Part shown: positions 2,697 to 36,155 of the stretch, one piece after another
Layout of the letters: each line of letters starts with the position of its first letter
Numbering within the stretch: position 1 is the first letter of the stretch
IMG/VR virus record: IMGVR_UViG_2541047933_000011
Origin: a virus
Taxonomy: Duplodnaviria > Heunggongvirae > Uroviricota > Caudoviricetes
Length of the DNA: 41,351 bases
Reading direction: 5' to 3' (one strand)
The notes under the pieces: model-generated
What the model saw: the letters and a program-made list of their open reading frames with translations, nothing else
Told to the model about the DNA's origin: nothing
The model's database searches: none
Translations under genes and position numbers: made by a program

Positions 2697-3087
2697 CGTC
2701 TTTTCTCCCCGGAATTAACTCGCGTGGATTATCGGAACGGTGATAGAGCCATATACCAATACGCACAGCGACAATTGCTGACACGAATGCGCCTGCAGAG
2801 AAAACAATCCCTTTTTCAAAAGAGTCCTGCGTGATGGTAGGGATCAGGCTGGCTATGCCGATAAGAATTGATGCTGCTGGTTTGTAAAAGAGAAGGCCGC
2901 AAAGAAAGCTGAGCATCGACAGGAGCACCCGGCGACGGATGGGGTACTCTACTGCAGAGGTAACAAAAATTACCGCCCCAGCCAAAGCCCCTAAAGCAAC
3001 CTCCGGAGGGACACCTGCAATAACTGCAGCAAGAGAACCAAAACTAAGCAACTGATTTAATTGCTCACTTGTTACTTGAGCAGACAT
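2683..3087 (-). CDS. putative holin (about 3 TM segments)
   Basis: ATG 3087 with AGGAG RBS; three hydrophobic helices; first gene of lysis cassette. Confidence 0.55.
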   Translation of the reverse strand: MSAQVTSEQLNQLLSFGSLAAVIAGVPPEVALGALAGAVIFVTSAVEYPIRRRVLLSMLSFLCGLLFYKPAASILIGIASLIPTITQDSFEKGIVFSAGAFVSAIVAVRIGIWLYHRSDNPRELIPGRKDDGNA

Positions 3088-3368
3088 ACTTTCTCCTGTT
3101 TACTATCTATAAGCCAGTCAATTATTGATGACTAAACCCGCATAGTAAACCATATATGAATCATTATTGTTCCATATCATATATCTCAATAAAAGTACTA
3201 ATGATTTTACAGAACGAGCCAGCAGAGTGGGGGCAGTTGTACAGGAACCATAGACTTAATTTTGTATTTAATAATGCTATGGTGTAATAAACCTGAACAT
3301 GTATTTAAAATACGTACTGATTCATGATAGAATTCAAAGATAACTTTTCACCAACTCCGTTTTTGATA

Positions 3369-3395
3369 CCCGCAATATTTTGCGGGCTTTTTTTT
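3369..3395. terminator. stem-loop with flanking A/T runs at 3' end of tail spike gene (possible terminator)
   Basis: CCCGCAA-tatt-TTGCGGG hairpin followed by T9 on plus strand and preceded by A-run on minus strand. Confidence 0.35.
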
Positions 3396-6300
3396 AACGT
3401 TCTTCCAGAGACTGAACCCGCTCTTTTATCTTATCCATTTCTCTGCGCTGCCATGCTGCCTCGATATAGAATAAGAGATCAGGTCTGACCCCCCATCTAG
3501 ATCCTGCTGGCGTTATTTCAACGCGCTCAATGATGTCTTCTATTACCATCACTGGATTATCATCCTCATCAACAATGATGCTCCCGTCATTATCAGTCAG
3601 CGGCATTTCCCTTTGGCCAGTAATGACGTCATCATATACTGCGGGATAATCGTCATAGCAAAGAAAGGCATAGCGGCATGTTGTGCTTTCTTCTTCCATG
3701 AGTCCGTGAGAAATAAGAACATCACGAAGTTGCTGCGCGATTACACCATGATGTATCCTCGCCCCTTCTTCCCCCTTTATAGCGACAGCGTTCAGCCATT
3801 TATAAGCGATATACCTGACGTCACCCCAGGCATCCAGCAATGCTTCGTCAGGAGAGACCGGCTCTGTCTTTAATGTTCCGTCACTGGTAACCACAGGATT
3901 GGAGCCAAGATAAACTGTCGAGAACCTGTTTCCCGGACCACCAAGAGCATTTACATTATCAAGATAAGGTTTAACATCTCCGTTCTCAAAAAGATGTTCG
4001 AGTGCGTTATATACCGCGCGACGTGGAGTACTGCTTCCGGAACCATGCAACGTTATCATTGCACCATCTGCTGAAGACGTTGTTTCACCGCCGCTAACGA
4101 TTAATCTCTGAGCGGTAACATCATCAGACGGTACTTTCTTCGCAATAATGGCGTAATTACCCTCAAGTTTGACTTCCGCGCGAACTTGTCCTGATGTACC
4201 TGCATGGACAGTCAGTGACTGGACGGCAACATCATCTGTGAAATCAACGGGTACAGGAACCGTCCTCACGCCTGACGTCGACATAAAAGTAGGAAGCGTT
4301 CTGTTAGGAGTGGCTCCGTAGACAAAATCCCTTGAAACAAATTCTTCCTGTTTAATTTTCACCCTGAAACAATACAAATCAGCCGGGTGACCATCGTGAA
4401 CATAAGGATATTTTCTGTTGTTATCCCCTATGCTCCATGGGTTTAGAAAGTCTTCCCCACCGAAAATGTAGTACAGCCAGTTGTCTTTGATACAAACTGA
4501 ACCAACACCAACCGCAGAGTTAACTATTCCGCCCTGATAAATCTGATCAGTAACATTAACCCACTCTACATTATCCAGACTCCACTCATTGACGTTAACT
4601 CTGGTCATAAATGTTCTTGGATAATTTCCTGCATAACGGTTATCAGGCTCTCCTCCTTCCCACTCACCAAATGCGCGCTCACTGCCAAAAATAATCAGCT
4701 CATCGCCAACTTTGGCAAAAGGAAGGTTTGAGTGATGAACATTATTTGGGAAGCGAAGAGAATTCCATGATGTACCTAAATCAGAGCTTCTGTGCAATGA
4801 ACTACCGGGTTGAGTACTTAATGTCCCCCTGGTCGTCAGATACAGAATGCCATCATAATATTTTACACATGGCTCAGATGCATTCGCCTCATATTCTGCA
4901 GGTATGCGTCTGCGAACAAAGCTACCAGGAGAACCGAAAGCATCAGAGAAATAGAGTATCCCAAGCTCGCGTGGACCAATATCACCATTATGGTAGCCAA
5001 CAGCAAAACTGTTATCGCTAATCGTCGCAAAACTGTGAATCTCAGTAACAGGAGTGCTTCCGTCAACAAAAGAAGGAATAGTTCCAAGACTGGTTTTTCT
5101 CCATGGTGACGAGTGAAATGATGTACCAAAACTCCAGTATCTACCCTCGTTATTCTGATCCACATCCTGGGTATTTTGCGTCGTAACTGTAAAAGTATTT
5201 TTATCAATAACAGTAGTCACCGTCATATTCCCGGTAACACCTGTAACACCAGAGTTTGAGAAGTTGACAAAATCACCAGCAAATAATCCGTGATCAGTAA
5301 TGCGAATATAAGCGACTTGCTGATTTGCTGCTTTCGTTATACCACCATAAACGCGAAGGCTGCGACTCATTGGGCGATCCCACAACTCTGCAACCTGCAG
5401 TTTATTTCCGCTCACGGTCCGCGTCTCAATTACAGCAAAAAGGCGATTTCTGACAACCCCCATACTCATGCAGTGATAGTTAACTGTGGGATAGTTTTCA
5501 TGTAAATCTGTAAGCCATTCCGGCGTTGTCCAGGTCTTCCCGTCATCTCCTGAGCGAACCCATGCAACATGGAGGTTATTTACACCATGGCGGTCTCCAG
5601 CCATAAAAGGCGCATAGATGACATTGTCATATACAAACGTTTTATCCTGCGTCCAGGCGTTGTACCACGGTGTATCTGTAATTTTAAATAACTCTCCCTG
5701 GATAAAATCTTCAGAAGCATAAAAAAGAGGCTGGCCCGGTATTCTCTCAAATAAAAAACGAGCATTTTTAAATCGACTGACATCCGGAAGAGTTGATACT
5801 TTAAAAGTAAGCCCTAATCCGTCAATTTTATAACCTGGAGATGAGGCTTCAAGGCACGCGCTTATTGCAGTGGAATCGTCATTTATACCATCACCAACAG
5901 CTCCAAAATCTTTGGGGCTAATAGCATCACGCATTTTATCCTGGAACGTTCGGTACACAGCCCCAGAACCATACTGAATAAACCAACCAAAACCACCAAC
6001 AACCCCGGCGATTGCAGCATCGACATAATTACGCATTGAGCGATTATTTACAGCGTCCTGCTCAAATGATGGATCTGCAAGGTTAGAAATTTTGTTTTGC
6101 TTTGCATCGTAATATTTTGCAAGCAAAGATGGTTTCATCAATGCACGTCTGAACCACCCAAAACATTGCTGGATCAGCATCGTCAGGTAGTCAAAGGCAT
6201 CTTCATGCACTTCGGGGAAAAATTTTCCCTGATTGCGAAGGTCTGTCTCCTGCACCACATCAAGCACACGATCTATCGTAATTCGCCATCCAGCAGCAAG

Positions 6301-6513
6301 CGGCGACGGAAGAACAACAGAACCGCCACTATAAGTGCCCGCCCCAGTTACCGTATAACCGGTATCCAGTACTAGTTCTGTTACGTTACCGTTAAGGTCA
6401 GACACCTGAACAACCAGGTCGGATTTTTTGAAAATACGGAAGGTATACGGAAATGATGTCGTAACGCCGTTACCAGTGTATTCGTTGTGGTCAACTTCGG
6501 TTGAGACCGTCAT
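3394..6513 (-). CDS. tail spike: T7 gp17-like N-terminal adaptor, beta-helix/sialidase-like Asp-box region, C-terminal S74-type intramolecular chaperone domain
   Basis: 1039 aa; GGAG RBS; N-terminus YTGNGVTTSFPYTF; DFGAVGDGINDDSTAI pectate-lyase-like motif; Asp-boxes SGDDGKTW and SSDLGTSW; C-terminal GVIAQQL region. Confidence 0.8.
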   Translation of the reverse strand: MTVSTEVDHNEYTGNGVTTSFPYTFRIFKKSDLVVQVSDLNGNVTELVLDTGYTVTGAGTYSGGSVVLPSPLAAGWRITIDRVLDVVQETDLRNQGKFFPEVHEDAFDYLTMLIQQCFGWFRRALMKPSLLAKYYDAKQNKISNLADPSFEQDAVNNRSMRNYVDAAIAGVVGGFGWFIQYGSGAVYRTFQDKMRDAISPKDFGAVGDGINDDSTAISACLEASSPGYKIDGLGLTFKVSTLPDVSRFKNARFLFERIPGQPLFYASEDFIQGELFKITDTPWYNAWTQDKTFVYDNVIYAPFMAGDRHGVNNLHVAWVRSGDDGKTWTTPEWLTDLHENYPTVNYHCMSMGVVRNRLFAVIETRTVSGNKLQVAELWDRPMSRSLRVYGGITKAANQQVAYIRITDHGLFAGDFVNFSNSGVTGVTGNMTVTTVIDKNTFTVTTQNTQDVDQNNEGRYWSFGTSFHSSPWRKTSLGTIPSFVDGSTPVTEIHSFATISDNSFAVGYHNGDIGPRELGILYFSDAFGSPGSFVRRRIPAEYEANASEPCVKYYDGILYLTTRGTLSTQPGSSLHRSSDLGTSWNSLRFPNNVHHSNLPFAKVGDELIIFGSERAFGEWEGGEPDNRYAGNYPRTFMTRVNVNEWSLDNVEWVNVTDQIYQGGIVNSAVGVGSVCIKDNWLYYIFGGEDFLNPWSIGDNNRKYPYVHDGHPADLYCFRVKIKQEEFVSRDFVYGATPNRTLPTFMSTSGVRTVPVPVDFTDDVAVQSLTVHAGTSGQVRAEVKLEGNYAIIAKKVPSDDVTAQRLIVSGGETTSSADGAMITLHGSGSSTPRRAVYNALEHLFENGDVKPYLDNVNALGGPGNRFSTVYLGSNPVVTSDGTLKTEPVSPDEALLDAWGDVRYIAYKWLNAVAIKGEEGARIHHGVIAQQLRDVLISHGLMEEESTTCRYAFLCYDDYPAVYDDVITGQREMPLTDNDGSIIVDEDDNPVMVIEDIIERVEITPAGSRWGVRPDLLFYIEAAWQRREMDKIKERVQSLEER

Positions 6514-6616
6514 GTTAAATCTCCAGATAGTCGCAGCACCCGTTGCGCCGCATATCTGGTTATTCTATTACCTGAAAAACCACATATGGATAGAAAGACT
6601 GTGAATACGAATAGAT

Positions 6617-6633
6617 ATTACCTTTCGGGTAAT
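6617..6633. promoter_or_regulatory. operator-like palindrome ATTACC-tttcg-GGTAAT (perfect)
   Basis: exact 6-5-6 inverted repeat; 37 bp upstream of LexA box and 76 bp upstream of ATG 6709. Confidence 0.6.
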
Positions 6634-6669
6634 TTGCAAAACGTGCTGGATAGCAAACAAATTATTTGA

Positions 6670-6689
6670 TACTGTATAAATATACAGTT
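6670..6689. promoter_or_regulatory. LexA (SOS) box
   Basis: TACTGTATAAATATACAGTT: 18 of 20 matches to TACTGTATATATATACAGTA with CTGT-N8-ACAG intact; 20 bp upstream of ATG 6709. Confidence 0.7.
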
Positions 6690-6708
6690 ATTGCATGGAG
6701 AAGATAAG

Positions 6709-6966
6709 ATGCAGCAGTATCACTATCCACTGGAAGACGGATTTACCGAAAGGATTCACACGCCGGGAGGCGTCAGATCACTGGTGGAGGGATCGCACTT
6801 GATGAAATTACTCCGGGATCTCGATAAGGATGGATTTAATGTCGATGGCCCACTTGCCGAACTGACTGCACTGATTAACTACGTCACCAGCTCACAGATG
6901 TCTATGCAGGATCTGCAAACACATCTCGACTATTGTGCCGAACAATTACGAAAACAAACCACATAA
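6709..6966 (+). CDS. small protein homologous to the C-terminal domain of the Bro-N antirepressor (candidate SOS-inducible antirepressor)
   Basis: 85 aa; GGAG RBS 8 nt before ATG; about 36 percent identity over about 72 aa to the C-terminus of the 8112..8804 product (hand alignment). Confidence 0.6.
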   Translation: MQQYHYPLEDGFTERIHTPGGVRSLVEGSHLMKLLRDLDKDGFNVDGPLAELTALINYVTSSQMSMQDLQTHLDYCAEQLRKQTT

Positions 6967-6971
6967 AGAAA

Positions 6972-6989
6972 AGGCCGCTCTAGCGGCCT
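6972..6989. terminator. bidirectional stem-loop between convergent genes
   Basis: AGGCCGC-tcta-GCGGCCT hairpin overlapping stop of 6988..7716. Confidence 0.45.
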
Positions 6990-7716
6990 ATCGTTTCGCT
7001 TTGTGCTCGTCCCAGCACGTTTTGCACCATGCCATTAAGCCGTCCGCATTTTGATTATTAGGGTAAAAGCTAGTTCGTTTTCTGCGGACATTACAAATTG
7101 GGCACCACTTCATATGGCGTGTATTCTTTGGGCCATCGAGACACCTTGCACACCACTTAGTCAATCCATCTGGATTTTTTGACGATTTCCTGAATTTTTC
7201 ATATGGAAGGTTTATTCTGCATCGCAAGCACTGCTTGCTACCACTTGAAACTCTGTTAGCTGATTCTTCTTTTGGCGGCGATACAGAAGGTATTCTTGCT
7301 GGCTCTGATACTGCCTGAGGTGCTTTTTTAGATGACTGAGACGATATGTCATCACCAGGGAATCTTCCATGATATGCCGGACGCGTTGACACTCCGGGTG
7401 GAAGCTCAGCTGTAAACGGCTTTGGCTGAATCAGTTGCCTCTCTTTTGCTAACTCCTGCTGTTTATAATATGTCTGGATTACCGCGCTATCATAAGCAGG
7501 AGGTACGGAAATATTAGGCGCATTATCTCCCGTTTTTTGAAACTGAGTGGAGGTGTGTTCTATCACCTGTGTACGATTAATCGTTATCTCCCCATCTTCA
7601 GTCTTTATCGTTTTGTTATGATTAACGACCGTACGATCAGAGATCTTAGTCTTGTTCTGGTTGATAACGTAAATAATCACCGCAACCACACCAACAACTA
7701 CCCAGAAAACTTCCAT
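6988..7716 (-). CDS. membrane-anchored protein with C-terminal tandem zinc-ribbon (four CxxC pairs)
   Basis: 242 aa; strong GAGGAAAGG RBS; N-terminal TM helix; C-terminus CLRC...WCARC...WCPIC...WCKTC. Confidence 0.6.
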   Translation of the reverse strand: MEVFWVVVGVVAVIIYVINQNKTKISDRTVVNHNKTIKTEDGEITINRTQVIEHTSTQFQKTGDNAPNISVPPAYDSAVIQTYYKQQELAKERQLIQPKPFTAELPPGVSTRPAYHGRFPGDDISSQSSKKAPQAVSEPARIPSVSPPKEESANRVSSGSKQCLRCRINLPYEKFRKSSKNPDGLTKWCARCLDGPKNTRHMKWCPICNVRRKRTSFYPNNQNADGLMAWCKTCWDEHKAKR

Positions 7717-7735: not shown

Positions 7736-7752
7736 ATTACCTTAAAGGTAAT
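7736..7752. promoter_or_regulatory. operator-like palindrome ATTACC-ttaaa-GGTAAT (perfect)
   Basis: exact inverted repeat 20 bp upstream of ATG 7716 (minus strand). Confidence 0.6.
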
Positions 7753-7800
7753 ATCTTGCTTTCAGGTGATCAAGCGTTAAACGCAATCAACCAAATACGG

Positions 7801-7830
7801 TTGATTTTAATATTTCTTCGCGTTTATCAT
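7801..7830 (+). promoter_or_regulatory. candidate sigma70 promoter (TTGATT-18-TATCAT) overlapped by operator
   Basis: -35 at 7801-7806, -10 at 7825-7830; operator 7829..7845 overlaps -10 and start region. Confidence 0.4.
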
Positions 7831-7845
7831 TACCTTTGCGGTAAA
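7829..7845. promoter_or_regulatory. operator-like palindrome ATTACC-tttgc-GGTAAa
   Basis: core TTACC-N5-GGTAA exact. Confidence 0.55.
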
Positions 7846-8111
7846 TTTACATCGCACTCCTCTTGTGCCATAGTAATCGGGCACTGGCAAAATCCAGTGC
7901 CGGGATTGGTCTCCCGGATTACTACAGAGGCACATATGCCGCATAAGCGGTTTTTTTATGTGTAAAGCGCACCTATTCTATGGTGGGCTGTGTGGGGGCA
8001 CCGAAAGGTGCGCCGGGTTCCTTTGTAGCCGGTAAGACCAACTCTGCACAGTTCACCACCATCTGATTGGTCTCAGCGGTGGTGATTAACCTAACTACAA
8101 AGGTGATCGCC
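7846..8111 (+). other. long structured non-coding leader upstream of Bro-N gene (possible attenuator or small RNA)
   Basis: about 265 nt without a credible ORF; hairpins at 7872-7897 and 7996-8011 (GAAA loop); CCGC-ataa-GCGG plus T7 at 7938-7957. Confidence 0.3.
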
Positions 8112-8804
8112 ATGAATACCAAACCTTCCATCTTTTCCTTTGAGTCATCCTGCCAGATCCGTATGTTCATGATTGACGGAGAACCTTGGTTTGTCACCAA
8201 AGATGTGTGCAATGCTTTGAATATTGATGTTACACAAGCGAGAAAACTTGATAAAAAAGGCTGGAACAAAAAGGGGCTGTATTCAATACAGACCCCTGGT
8301 GGAATACAAGAACTATCCATCGTTTCAGAATCAGGTCTCTACATCCTTATTCTGCGTTGCAAAGAGGCAATGACTGAGGGAACGAGAGCATTCAGATTTC
8401 TTGAATGGGTTACAGGTGAGGTTCTTCCTCAGATCCGCCGCACCGGAAGTTACATTAAAAACTCGCTCCCGCAGGAAGAACGCATAAAGATGGTTGCCGA
8501 CCAGGTAGCCAACGCCACAGCATCAGCAGTGATGCAGGCAATGAAGATAGAGAACAAAACCTACAGTGCCCCACTGAAGCCCGGCTACCGCAGCCTGATT
8601 CATTCTCCGTCTGGTGTTCTCGGCCTGACGGAGAACTCATTGCTTATGAATCTGCTAAACCAGTTACAGGAAGACGGGCACGACGTATCGGGCGCGGCGG
8701 CGGAGCTGACCACCATGTTCTGCTACATCGTCGGTGTGAGCAAATGCCTGCGTGATATCCAGACCCACGCGGAGTACATCAACGACAAGGCAGGGTTCTT
8801 CTGA
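8112..8804 (+). CDS. Bro-N domain antirepressor-like protein
   Basis: ATG 8112 with AGGTGA RBS; N-terminal FMIDGEPWFVTKDVCNALNI Bro-N motif; C-terminal domain paralogous to 6709..6966. Confidence 0.75.
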   Translation: MNTKPSIFSFESSCQIRMFMIDGEPWFVTKDVCNALNIDVTQARKLDKKGWNKKGLYSIQTPGGIQELSIVSESGLYILILRCKEAMTEGTRAFRFLEWVTGEVLPQIRRTGSYIKNSLPQEERIKMVADQVANATASAVMQAMKIENKTYSAPLKPGYRSLIHSPSGVLGLTENSLLMNLLNQLQEDGHDVSGAAAELTTMFCYIVGVSKCLRDIQTHAEYINDKAGFF

Positions 8805-26352: not shown

Positions 26353-26429
26353 GTGGCATTAGCTCAGTTGGACAGAGCAACCGCCTTCTAAGCGGTTGGT
26401 CGCAGGTTCGAATCCTGCATGCCACGCCA
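26353..26429 (+). tRNA. tRNA-Arg (anticodon UCU), phage-encoded
   Basis: 77 nt; acceptor stem GTGGCAT/ATGCCAC; D-arm GCTCAGTTGGACAGAGC; anticodon stem ACCGC/GCGGT with loop CTTCTAA; T-arm GCAGGTTCGAATCCTGC; 3' GCCA. Confidence 0.85.
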
Positions 26430-32979: not shown

Positions 32980-32996
32980 TTTACCCCTTAGGTAAT
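32980..32996. promoter_or_regulatory. operator-like palindrome tTTACC-cctta-GGTAAT
   Basis: core exact; overlaps RBS of 32630..32977. Confidence 0.55.
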
Positions 32997-33041
32997 TAAA
33001 AACCACATAAGACACGAAATCAATAGATTTTAGAATATTTT

Positions 33042-33058
33042 ATTACCTCTAAGGTAAT
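33042..33058. promoter_or_regulatory. operator-like palindrome ATTACC-tctaa-GGTAAT (perfect)
   Basis: exact; 65 bp upstream of ATG 32977, inside the early operon. Confidence 0.6.
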
Positions 33059-35365: not shown

Positions 35366-35382
35366 TTTACCTGTTGGGTAAT
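35366..35382. promoter_or_regulatory. operator-like palindrome tTTACC-tgttg-GGTAAT
   Basis: core exact; 55 bp upstream of repressor ATG. Confidence 0.55.
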
Positions 35383-35436: not shown

Positions 35437-36021
35437 ATGAAAAGTATCCAGGACGTCCGCAGGCAAAATCTCAACGACTTGATCGACCGTGAATTCAATG
35501 GTGTTCAGACGCGGATGGCAGAAAAACTTGGAACTCAGGCAAATCTGGTAAACCGCTGGGCTCTTGGCAAGAAGGTTATCGGCGACCAGGTTGCACGAAA
35601 AATTGAAGCTGCCGCCAATAAACCCCGTAACTGGCTTGATATTGATCGTTCGCTTTCTCAGGAGGGTTTTCAGCCTGTCGGCCCGAGCGATATAGGTCAG
35701 CTGGCGGCTCACAACCTGGAACGCTGGATGAGCGAAAGCCGCGACCTTTCAACACAGGGAAAACTTCACCGCGCATCCGGCGTCGCCCAGGTGACAATCA
35801 GCCGCCTGTTAAACAATGAGGTCAGCGTTTCCATTTCCACTCTGGAGAATGTTGCATCCGCATTCGGGCGTCACGGATATGAACTACTGATTCACCCGCA
35901 CGACCCTGCGACTATCAACTATGACCGCTCACGCTACGCATTGTTACCCGAAACCGAGAAAGCAAAGATCGAAAGTTACATTGAATTTGTCATCAACCAG
36001 AACGAAAAAAGCAAACAATAA
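35437..36021 (+). CDS. prophage repressor candidate with two XRE-type HTH domains and no peptidase domain
   Basis: 194 aa; HTH-1 QTRMAEKLGTQANLVNRW, HTH-2 SGVAQVTISRLLNNEVS; no S24 Ala-Gly/Ser-Lys region; no strong SD. Confidence 0.6.
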   Translation: MKSIQDVRRQNLNDLIDREFNGVQTRMAEKLGTQANLVNRWALGKKVIGDQVARKIEAAANKPRNWLDIDRSLSQEGFQPVGPSDIGQLAAHNLERWMSESRDLSTQGKLHRASGVAQVTISRLLNNEVSVSISTLENVASAFGRHGYELLIHPHDPATINYDRSRYALLPETEKAKIESYIEFVINQNEKSKQ

Positions 36022-36041
36022 AACTATAGTTTTCAGTAAGT

Positions 36042-36066
36042 AAGCCGCCTCATGCGGCTTTTTTAT
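36042..36066 (+). terminator. rho-independent terminator after repressor gene
   Basis: AAGCCGC-ctcat-GCGGCTT followed by TTTTATT. Confidence 0.6.
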
Positions 36067-36076
36067 TGCCAGATAG

Positions 36077-36093
36077 ATTACCTTACGGGTAAT
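36077..36093. promoter_or_regulatory. operator-like palindrome ATTACC-ttacg-GGTAAT (perfect)
   Basis: exact; 19 bp upstream of TTGACA -35. Confidence 0.6.
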
Positions 36094-36111
36094 TTTTTTA
36101 ACTCATATCTA

Positions 36112-36140
36112 TTGACACCAAACCAAATAAGCATAATTAT
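36112..36140 (+). promoter_or_regulatory. candidate early promoter (PL analogue): TTGACA -35 with AT-rich -10
   Basis: TTGACA at 36112-36117; -10 candidates at 36133-36140; flanked by operators 36077 and 36139. Confidence 0.5.
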
Positions 36141-36155
36141 TACCTCAACGGTAAC
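36139..36155. promoter_or_regulatory. operator-like palindrome ATTACC-tcaac-GGTAAc
   Basis: core exact; overlaps -10 and start region; 19 bp upstream of ATG 36174. Confidence 0.55.

Follow-up and report, generated by a model that had tools for sequence, protein, structure and literature searches.

An epsilon15-like prophage of Escherichia coli carries a LexA box before the counterpart of the SPC32H antirepressor gene and a second gene with an Ant-type domain

Introduction

How can a prophage respond to DNA damage when its repressor carries no self-cleavage domain? The question is raised by a 41,351-nucleotide (nt) stretch of viral DNA, IMG/VR record IMGVR_UViG_2541047933_000011 (referred to, at its full length, as the window), in which a near-consensus LexA box stands in front of a small gene. 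The window shares 96-99% DNA identity and a matching gene order with phiV10, TL-2011b and other Uetakevirus genomes, and these comparisons identify it as an epsilon15/phiV10-like (Uetakevirus) prophage of Escherichia coli. A sequence-only reading had suggested that the SOS response induces this prophage by freeing an antirepressor from LexA control, with a repressor that does not cleave itself as the target. By analogy with the orthologous module of Salmonella phage SPC32H, this suggestion is well supported, as the window encodes an Ant protein 88% identical to that of SPC32H and a full-length Rep homologue, and includes the orthologous LexA box. The locus is thus very probably the SOS trigger of the prophage and orthologous to the SPC32H Rep/Ant switch.

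Results

The proposed switch consists of the following elements.

6709 to 6966, plus strand: ant, coding for an 85-amino-acid antirepressor, orthologue of SPC32H Ant, identified by homology to the annotated ant and to PDB 5d50_E
6697 to 6700, plus strand: GGAG ribosome-binding site, 8 nt before the ATG, read from the sequence and invariant in an alignment of ten phages
6670 to 6689, no strand: LexA (SOS) box TACTGTATAAATATACAGTT, identified by consensus match, matrix score and conservation
35437 to 36021, plus strand: rep, coding for a 194-amino-acid maintenance repressor, homologue of SPC32H Rep, identified by matches to PDB 5d50_A and 5d4z_A and to helix-turn-helix (HTH) families

The protein encoded by the small gene was compared with phage genomes and with proteins of known structure. 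It is 88% identical (tblastn) to the product of the SPC32H and SPC32N gene annotated 'ant: anti-repressor protein', and its residues 2-85 match PDB 5d50 chain E, 'Anti-repressor protein', with E=1.3e-47. The gene occupies the same position in the window and in SPC32H, divergent from the tailspike gene. These matches make the small gene the counterpart, in E. coli, of the already characterised SPC32H Ant, an antirepressor of epsilon15-like phages that is held silent by the host LexA. The databases label it otherwise: the protein has no Pfam family, belongs to PHROG 450 of 'unknown function' and is a 'hypothetical protein' in RefSeq. A tblastn search with Ant found matches in 35 phage records. 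The 85-amino-acid open reading frame (ORF) with its GGAG had been recognised correctly, with the stop ending at 6966; its ATG lies at 6709, not at 6710. All elements named in the sequence-only reading were found where it had put them, to within one or two bases.

The sequence TACTGTATAAATATACAGTT is the sole match in the window to the 20-mer LexA consensus at three or fewer mismatches, and none was expected from 100 shuffles. The gap between this box and the ATG is 19 nt, close to the 20 base pairs (bp) given by the sequence-only reading. A LexA position weight matrix was built from 29 E. coli SOS boxes (Lewis et al. 1994; Fernandez de Henestrosa et al. 2000). The score of positions 6670-6689 was 27.2 bits, with a heterology index of 1.0. 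This value exceeded those of all 29 training sites (12.6-26.0 bits) and of every shuffle (maximum over 200 shuffles, 20.3 bits), and the matrix scoring that had been suggested as a check therefore upheld the box. A scan of the window with the same matrix found no second LexA box, for instance before the Bro-N gene described below; the best other site scored 10.9 bits, within the shuffle noise. The bare motif CTGT-N8-ACAG, with one mismatch allowed, was not enriched (18 matches in the window versus 13.9 expected). Since the short motif occurs at chance level, the LexA signal resides in the full 20-mer. From the very low heterology index, LexA is predicted to bind tightly, and the gene would then fire only under sustained damage.

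The box was also analyzed in an alignment of ten upstream regions. The CTGT-N8-ACAG motif is kept in the orthologues from E. coli, Salmonella and Enterobacter, and the Klebsiella orthologues show one change in the left arm. The box of the window aligns column for column with that of SPC32H. In the aligned stretch SPC32N differs from SPC32H by a single C-to-A change, located in the right-arm CAG of the box, which lowers the matrix score from 24.7 to 17.7 bits. In the work of Kim and Ryu from 2013, SPC32N reportedly differs from SPC32H by two nucleotides, one of them in the LexA site, where it leads to constitutive Ant and forced lytic growth. The deposited SPC32N and SPC32H sequences agree with the reported change in the LexA site.

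The same alignment suggested where transcription of ant may start.

6647 to 6675, plus strand: inferred ant promoter, with -35 TGGATA (6647-6652), 17-nt spacer and extended -10 TGaTACTGT (6667-6675), assigned by conservation

In the ten phages, whose hosts are E. coli, Salmonella, Enterobacter and Klebsiella, the sequences CTGGA.A, TG and TACTGT upstream of ant are constant or almost constant while their flanks drift. Also invariant, or nearly so, are a 17-bp palindrome, the arms of the box (with the Klebsiella left-arm change), the GGAG and the ATG. The conserved TG lies two bases before the LexA box. We infer that TGGATA-17-TACTGT is the ant promoter, with a start expected near 6682. The left arm of the LexA box would then be the -10 element of ant, and LexA would cover both this element and the start site. 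An alternative promoter, TTGCAA-17-ACAAAT, lies beside the palindrome; it was set aside as the main promoter, since both of its hexamers lack conservation in the family.

The candidate repressor matches PDB 5d50_A, 'Repressor', over residues 1-190 (E=3.5e-42) and 5d4z_A, the separately solved C-terminal part, over residues 89-190 (E=3.6e-20). The sequence-only reading had assigned to it two HTH domains and no autocleavage domain, a description that proved accurate. Pfam HTH_3 covered residues 106-147 (E=1e-9); a second HTH-type match, nearer the N-terminus (residues 21-61, E=3e-4), was weaker and fell below the Pfam cut-off, and residues 1-76 matched PHROG repressor families at about 1e-10. 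Neither Pfam nor the PHROGs detected a Peptidase_S24 domain in Rep, the C-terminal domain with a Ser/Lys dyad that marks self-cleavage of the lambda CI or LexA type. No self-cleaving repressor was found elsewhere in the prophage, either in the Pfam scan or in the annotation of a 99.6%-identical RefSeq prophage. The rep gene sits in the early region beside a cro-like gene, as in the SPC32H module. In SPC32H, Rep forms tetramers and binds Ant through one and the same C-terminal domain (PMC9986798). Rep homologues were found in 36 of 50,697 phage records and the Ant domain, free or fused, in 35, with the same genera and host make-up.

The 17-bp palindrome upstream of the LexA box belongs to a motif, ATTACC-N5-GGTAAT, that is repeated through the window. 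The sites that bear on the switch are listed here.

6617 to 6633, no strand: 17-bp Rep-type operator ATTACCTTTCGGGTAAT between the divergent tailspike and ant genes, matching the repeated palindrome perfectly
35366 to 35382, no strand: Rep operator in the rep/cro-like intergenic region, with two weaker copies just upstream (motif scan)
36077 to 36155, no strand: pair of Rep operators (36077-36093 and 36139-36155) bracketing the TTGACA-17-CATAAT-like promoter of the rightward early operon (motif scan)

The gap between ATTACCTTTCGGGTAAT and the LexA box is 36 nt. At two or fewer mismatches there are 15 copies of the motif in the window versus 1.17 expected, 13 of them intergenic or at gene starts, and SPC32H has 18 copies versus 1.0 expected. 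The terminase, head and tailspike operons of the window each have one or two sites in front of them. Equivalent sites carry the annotation 'protein_bind: repressor, lysogeny' in the RefSeq record of epsilon15, and three sites are found in SPC32H at the equivalent place between rep and the cro-like gene. This distribution identifies the palindrome at 6617-6633, which is invariant in the ten phages, as an operator of the phage repressor Rep and as one copy of a genome-wide motif. Some operators occur as pairs spaced 62 bp from centre to centre, namely those at 36077/36139 and 32980/33042 in the window and at 35971/36033 in SPC32H. We observed that these pairs (32980-33058, 36077-36155 and, in SPC32H, 35971-36049) bracket sigma-70-like promoters, an arrangement that fits a Rep tetramer on two sites. 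Separately, a conserved block, ATATGTGGTTTTT in the sense of the minus strand, is present at 6560-6590 and 33000-33020, beside Rep operators upstream of minus-strand operons, that of the tailspike included. It could form part of a late promoter or of an activator site. The window and SPC32H have the same operator sequence, although their Ant (88%) and Rep (42.7%) proteins have diverged unequally.

A second gene of the window encodes a protein related to Ant.

8112 to 8804, plus strand: long antirepressor with a Bro-N domain (residues 16-106) and an Ant-like C-terminal domain (residues 149-225), identified by Pfam, PDB and PHROG matches

Its 230-amino-acid product matches Pfam Bro-N at residues 16-106 (E=1.8e-13), PDB 5d50_E through its C-terminus (E=9e-14) and PHROG 130, 'anti-repressor Ant' (E=3.5e-51); a weak match to P22_AR_N (E=0.004) was below threshold. 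The resemblance between the small protein and the C-terminus of the Bro-N protein, estimated by hand at 36% in the sequence-only reading, turned out to be stronger. BLASTP aligned Ant without gaps to residues 149-222 of 230, with 42% identity over 74 amino acids and E=7e-16. In a word-indexed protein search, Ant retrieved nothing but close orthologues, all of them free-standing. The fused forms surfaced only in a profile search, which was exhaustive over 1.84 billion representative proteins and gathered 63 clusters of the Ant-domain family. In some family members the domain is the C-terminus behind Bro-N, AntA, Phage_pRha or ORF6N, and one AntA fusion has a C-domain identical to that of the window. 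Free-standing copies of the 'long-form' Ant subtype, that of the Bro-N protein, exist as well. The Ant domain is, by these comparisons, a shuffled module. The small protein had been described as a detached Bro-type C-domain; the homology is real, and the direction of evolution is not given by the data, with the domain occurring both free and variously fused. In the phage collection either Ant subtype is present in 35 records only, of the same genera as the 36 that encode Rep. The confinement of the Ant domain to genera that carry Rep argues that the fused form acts on Rep too.

Local tblastn found no third Ant-domain gene in the window. Other genomes differ in this regard. A Uetakevirus prophage in E. 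coli GCA_013059185.1 has a third Ant-domain gene, which is free-standing, of 97 amino acids and of the Bro-type subfamily (3001-3294 of the examined stretch). Flanked by the MT-A70 methylase gene and int, it comes last in the early-left operon, in a slot that holds a DUF1382 gene in the window. On a Klebsiella-type contig, a free Ant-domain gene of 95 amino acids (3001-3288 of the examined stretch) lies beside an AlpA-like gene and a HicAB toxin-antitoxin pair. No Uetakevirus prophage seems to surround this copy, which could be part of a satellite or an island manipulating Rep-type repressors. In phiV10, the type phage, the long antirepressor appears to be split at 6780-7459 into a 194-amino-acid Bro-N protein and a 29-amino-acid ORF, and its Ant-type C-domain is probably disrupted.

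The Bro-N gene is preceded by a leader of a different kind from that of ant.

7736 to 7845, no strand: two Rep-type operators, 7736-7752 perfect and 7829-7845 with one mismatch (motif scan)
7881 to 7957, plus strand: isrK-family small RNA, with an intrinsic terminator, opening the leader of the long antirepressor gene (Rfam RF01394, 74.7 bits, gathering threshold 50)
7976 to 8063, plus strand: C4-family antisense RNA in the same leader (Rfam RF01695, 78.6 bits, gathering threshold 45)

A promoter was predicted at 7846-7874 (TTTACA-17-CATAGT), and its start at about 7881 is the first base of isrK. The operator at 7829-7845 abuts the -35 element of this promoter. The isrK region has a folding z-score of -5.6. 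An upstream ORF of 28 amino acids (7980-8066) overlaps C4, and its stop abuts an in-frame TTG (8067) of the long antirepressor ORF, for which 8112 (ATG) is the annotated start. Homologous leaders occur in Shiga toxin (Stx) phages, Gifsy-1 and APSE-1. In the isrK-orf45-anrP module of Gifsy-1, IsrK in its short form acts as an activator of translation on the read-through mRNA, with AnrP as the inducer of the prophage (PMC4825925). The stretch 7881-8066 has the arrangement of an RNA switch like those of P1 immI and Gifsy-1 within an epsilon15-like prophage.

The neighbourhood of the two antirepressor genes includes a further feature.

6972 to 6989, no strand: GC-rich hairpin directly after the ant stop, between the convergent ant and 242-amino-acid protein genes, called as a terminator on the minus strand

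This hairpin is a probable bidirectional terminator. The 242-amino-acid protein (6988-7716, minus strand) combines a hydrophobic segment in its N-terminal part with cysteine-rich repeats in its C-terminal part. Its matches are to PHROG 6762 ('unknown function') and, weakly, to endonuclease VII and Lar-like zinc fingers. Its gene sits between ant and the Bro-N module, and at that position it is absent from SPC32H and phiV10. On the other side of ant, the tailspike gene (3394-6513, minus strand) encodes an endosialidase (K1 capsule depolymerase) catalytic domain after an epsilon15-like N-terminus. A tRNA gene was detected at 26353-26426 on the plus strand (73.3 bits); the near-identical RefSeq prophage has a tRNA-Arg annotated there on the opposite strand, and SPC32H has a tRNA-Arg at the equivalent place. 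The prophage region is present in 531 of 5426 complete E. coli genomes (about 10%), K1 and avian pathogenic E. coli (APEC) lineages included, and the 99.6%-identical RefSeq prophage adjoins guaA and encodes an endosialidase tailspike. The prophage is found in strains of K1, APEC and ST95 (sequence type 95) type. A 2026 preprint (bioRxiv 10.64898/2026.05.26.727859) gives 21- to 47-fold induction of prophages of the phiV10 species in gut E. coli by a DNA-damaging microcin, which lends independent support to SOS inducibility.

Discussion

The following sequence of events would account for the arrangement found in the window. In the lysogen, Rep bound to its 17-bp ATTACC-N5-GGTAAT operators would silence the early and late operons, and the host LexA would occupy the strong box at 6670-6689, covering the -10 element and start site of ant. 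Upon sustained DNA damage, activation of RecA would lead to self-cleavage of LexA, and ant would be transcribed. The 85-amino-acid Ant, a tetramer in SPC32H, would then bind the C-terminal domain of Rep, the one responsible for tetramerisation and Ant binding. The Rep tetramer would be split into dimers that no longer hold the DNA, the lytic genes would be turned on, and Rep itself would stay uncleaved. For the antirepressor step a review gives this order: once LexA has cleaved itself, Ant is produced and blocks the repressor through protein-protein contact (PMC7380047, citing Kim & Ryu 2013). The Bro-N protein, with its paralogous Ant domain, would be made from the isrK/C4-controlled leader flanked by Rep operators. 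Most likely it is directed at the same Rep; that it would serve there as a second input independent of SOS, or as a feed-forward reinforcement, is a proposal that we consider somewhat less likely to be right than wrong. A broader idea, put forward with the same reserve, is that the Ant fold is a portable Rep-targeting module, of which two copies, on SOS and isrK/C4 inputs, would act together on a single non-cleavable Rep.

At the level of sequence, it was established here that each component is the same as in the SPC32H system. Several points weigh against the orthologous switch as just described. LexA binding, Ant-Rep binding and inducibility of the prophage are transferred by analogy from the SPC32H experiments. 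Rep has only 42.7% identity with its SPC32H counterpart, against 88% for Ant, and conservation of the Ant-Rep interface between the window and SPC32H is assumed. In addition, a consensus promoter scanner made no call at the ant promoter, the assignment of which comes from conservation only. A more radical objection would be that the box is a chance palindrome, or that the small ORF is accessory and unrelated, induced by SOS yet without a part in prophage induction, as could be read from the labels 'hypothetical' and 'unknown function' that the databases give its product. This is extremely improbable when the matrix score is above that of every shuffle and training site, the box is conserved over four host genera, and the protein is 88% identical to an antirepressor that has been crystallised and genetically characterised.

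Two further alternatives leave the SOS trigger in place and concern the regulation of ant and the role of the Bro-N protein. The sequence-only reading had placed the operator palindrome 37 bp upstream of the box and derived from it an additional control by the phage regulator. The palindrome ATTACCTTTCGGGTAAT is indeed there, 36 nt away, and is a Rep operator; the control of ant by it is doubtful, as it ends 13 bp short of the -35 element. If Rep at 6617-6633 repressed ant besides LexA, loss of Rep would result in more ant and a positive feedback. The site is a perfect copy of the operator and invariant in ten phages, and the -35-like TTGCAA directly after it reproduces the geometry of the isrK promoter, where an operator abuts TTTACA. 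However, the best-conserved ant promoter begins 13 bp downstream of the operator and would not be covered by Rep, and BUCT554 and the Klebsiella phages do not keep TTGCAA, which is followed by no conserved -10. In epsilon15 and SPC32H, Rep operators stand before every late operon (terminase, head, tail fibre), which makes the tailspike operon the simplest client. The operator is also intact in the sequence of SPC32N, which reportedly makes Ant constitutively (Kim & Ryu 2013). Dual control therefore seems unlikely, and by analogy with the other late operons the operator more probably serves mainly the divergent tailspike operon. As for the Bro-N protein, the two Ant-domain proteins could differ in job, with the small Ant directed to the resident Rep and the long form, as an anti-immunity or crosstalk factor, to heteroimmune Reps that other prophages or incoming phages carry, or acting through its Bro-N DNA-binding domain. 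Such a division would suit two Ant domains that are only 42% identical, the label 'putative anti-immunity protein' given to the long protein by the phiV10 annotators, an isrK/C4 leader common to the antirepressor modules of Stx phages, Gifsy-1 and APSE-1, and the action in trans of Gifsy antirepressors on other prophages (PMC7380047). Nevertheless, the long-form Ant domain is confined, in the phage collection, to genomes with a Rep homologue, and the long-form Ant and Rep diverge roughly in parallel (97-100% and 99.5% among E. coli phages, 77.8% and 77.8% in Tyrion, 52.9% and 44.8% in Klebsiella phages). Moreover, all sequenced E. coli members have one type of Rep with 99% identity, so no heteroimmune target is evident. 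We regard separate jobs as quite improbable, and a Rep-directed role for both proteins is preferred.

The SPC32H Rep/Ant system (Kim & Ryu 2013, J Virol; Kim et al. 2016, PNAS; PDB 5D50, 5D4Z) is the closest known relative of the switch. It shares with the window the Uetakevirus background, an ant gene divergent from the tailspike gene with a product 88% identical, an orthologous LexA box, a full-length Rep homologue without a cleavage domain, and the same 17-bp operator sequence. The two differ in the low identity of Rep (42.7%) and in the box, which in the window is closer to consensus (heterology index 1.0 versus 2.65). SPC32H also lacks the Bro-N::Ant antirepressor behind isrK/C4 and the gene for the 242-amino-acid cysteine-rich membrane protein, both of which the window has between ant and the structural genes.

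The sequence-only reading had likened the system to 186 Tum and the Gifsy-type antirepressors (Shearwin 1998; Lemire 2011). The logic is the same, but these are functional analogues only, and the proper family is that of SPC32H Ant. The SPC32H authors are said to have found Ant structurally distinct from Tum and the Gifsy antirepressors. The general searches revealed no relation of Ant to Tum or GfoA (no Pfam family, and 5D50 chain E as the only PDB match), and no direct comparison was made. As in the window, in 186 (Tum) and in Gifsy-1/Gifsy-3 (GfoA/GfhA) a LexA-repressed small antirepressor inactivates a non-cleavable repressor by contact (PMC7380047), though these phages are of a different family and tail type.

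Other parts of the arrangement have parallels elsewhere. In P22, also a short-tailed temperate enterobacterial phage, the antirepressor gene of immI (mnt-arc-ant) adjoins the tailspike gene; unlike the small ant of the window, it is under Mnt and Arc rather than LexA, and the P22 c2 repressor is RecA-cleavable. The sub-threshold P22_AR_N match of the Bro-N protein is the sole resemblance to P22 Ant that was found. The window's Bro-N, joined to a C-domain also found behind AntA, Phage_pRha and ORF6N, resembles the Bro-N and KilA-N-type modular phage regulators reportedly described by Iyer, Koonin and Aravind in 2002. The leader of the Bro-N gene has its counterparts in Gifsy-1 isrK-orf45-anrP and in the immI of P1 and P7 (c4-icd-ant), which likewise combine an isrK-type RNA with a leaky terminator, a C4-type RNA overlapping a short ORF, and an antirepressor gene (PMC4825925). 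In contrast to these, the leader in the window is flanked by Rep-type operators, its upstream ORF has 28 amino acids and not 45, and the antirepressor ends in an SPC32H-type Ant domain with no AntQ-like target evident.

The system of the small ant is therefore already known, as the orthologue of the genetically and structurally characterised SPC32H module, and the modular Ant domain and the second, RNA-controlled antirepressor are modest additions to it. The main value of the finding lies in annotation, since a known antirepressor is still 'hypothetical' in RefSeq, of 'unknown function' in the PHROGs and without a Pfam family. Recognising ant identifies how these prophages respond to DNA-damaging drugs and bacteriocins. 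The shared Ant domain and the second antirepressor suggest that more than one input leads to induction in this group of phages; if the two-input arrangement holds, the second arm would be a DNA-damage-independent induction signal or a feed-forward lock. The side findings also point to a possible function of the C-terminal half in some Bro-N, AntA and Rha proteins, and the ill-defined C-terminal halves of many 'Bro-N antirepressors' would, if the Ant fold is a portable module, gain a concrete biochemical role.

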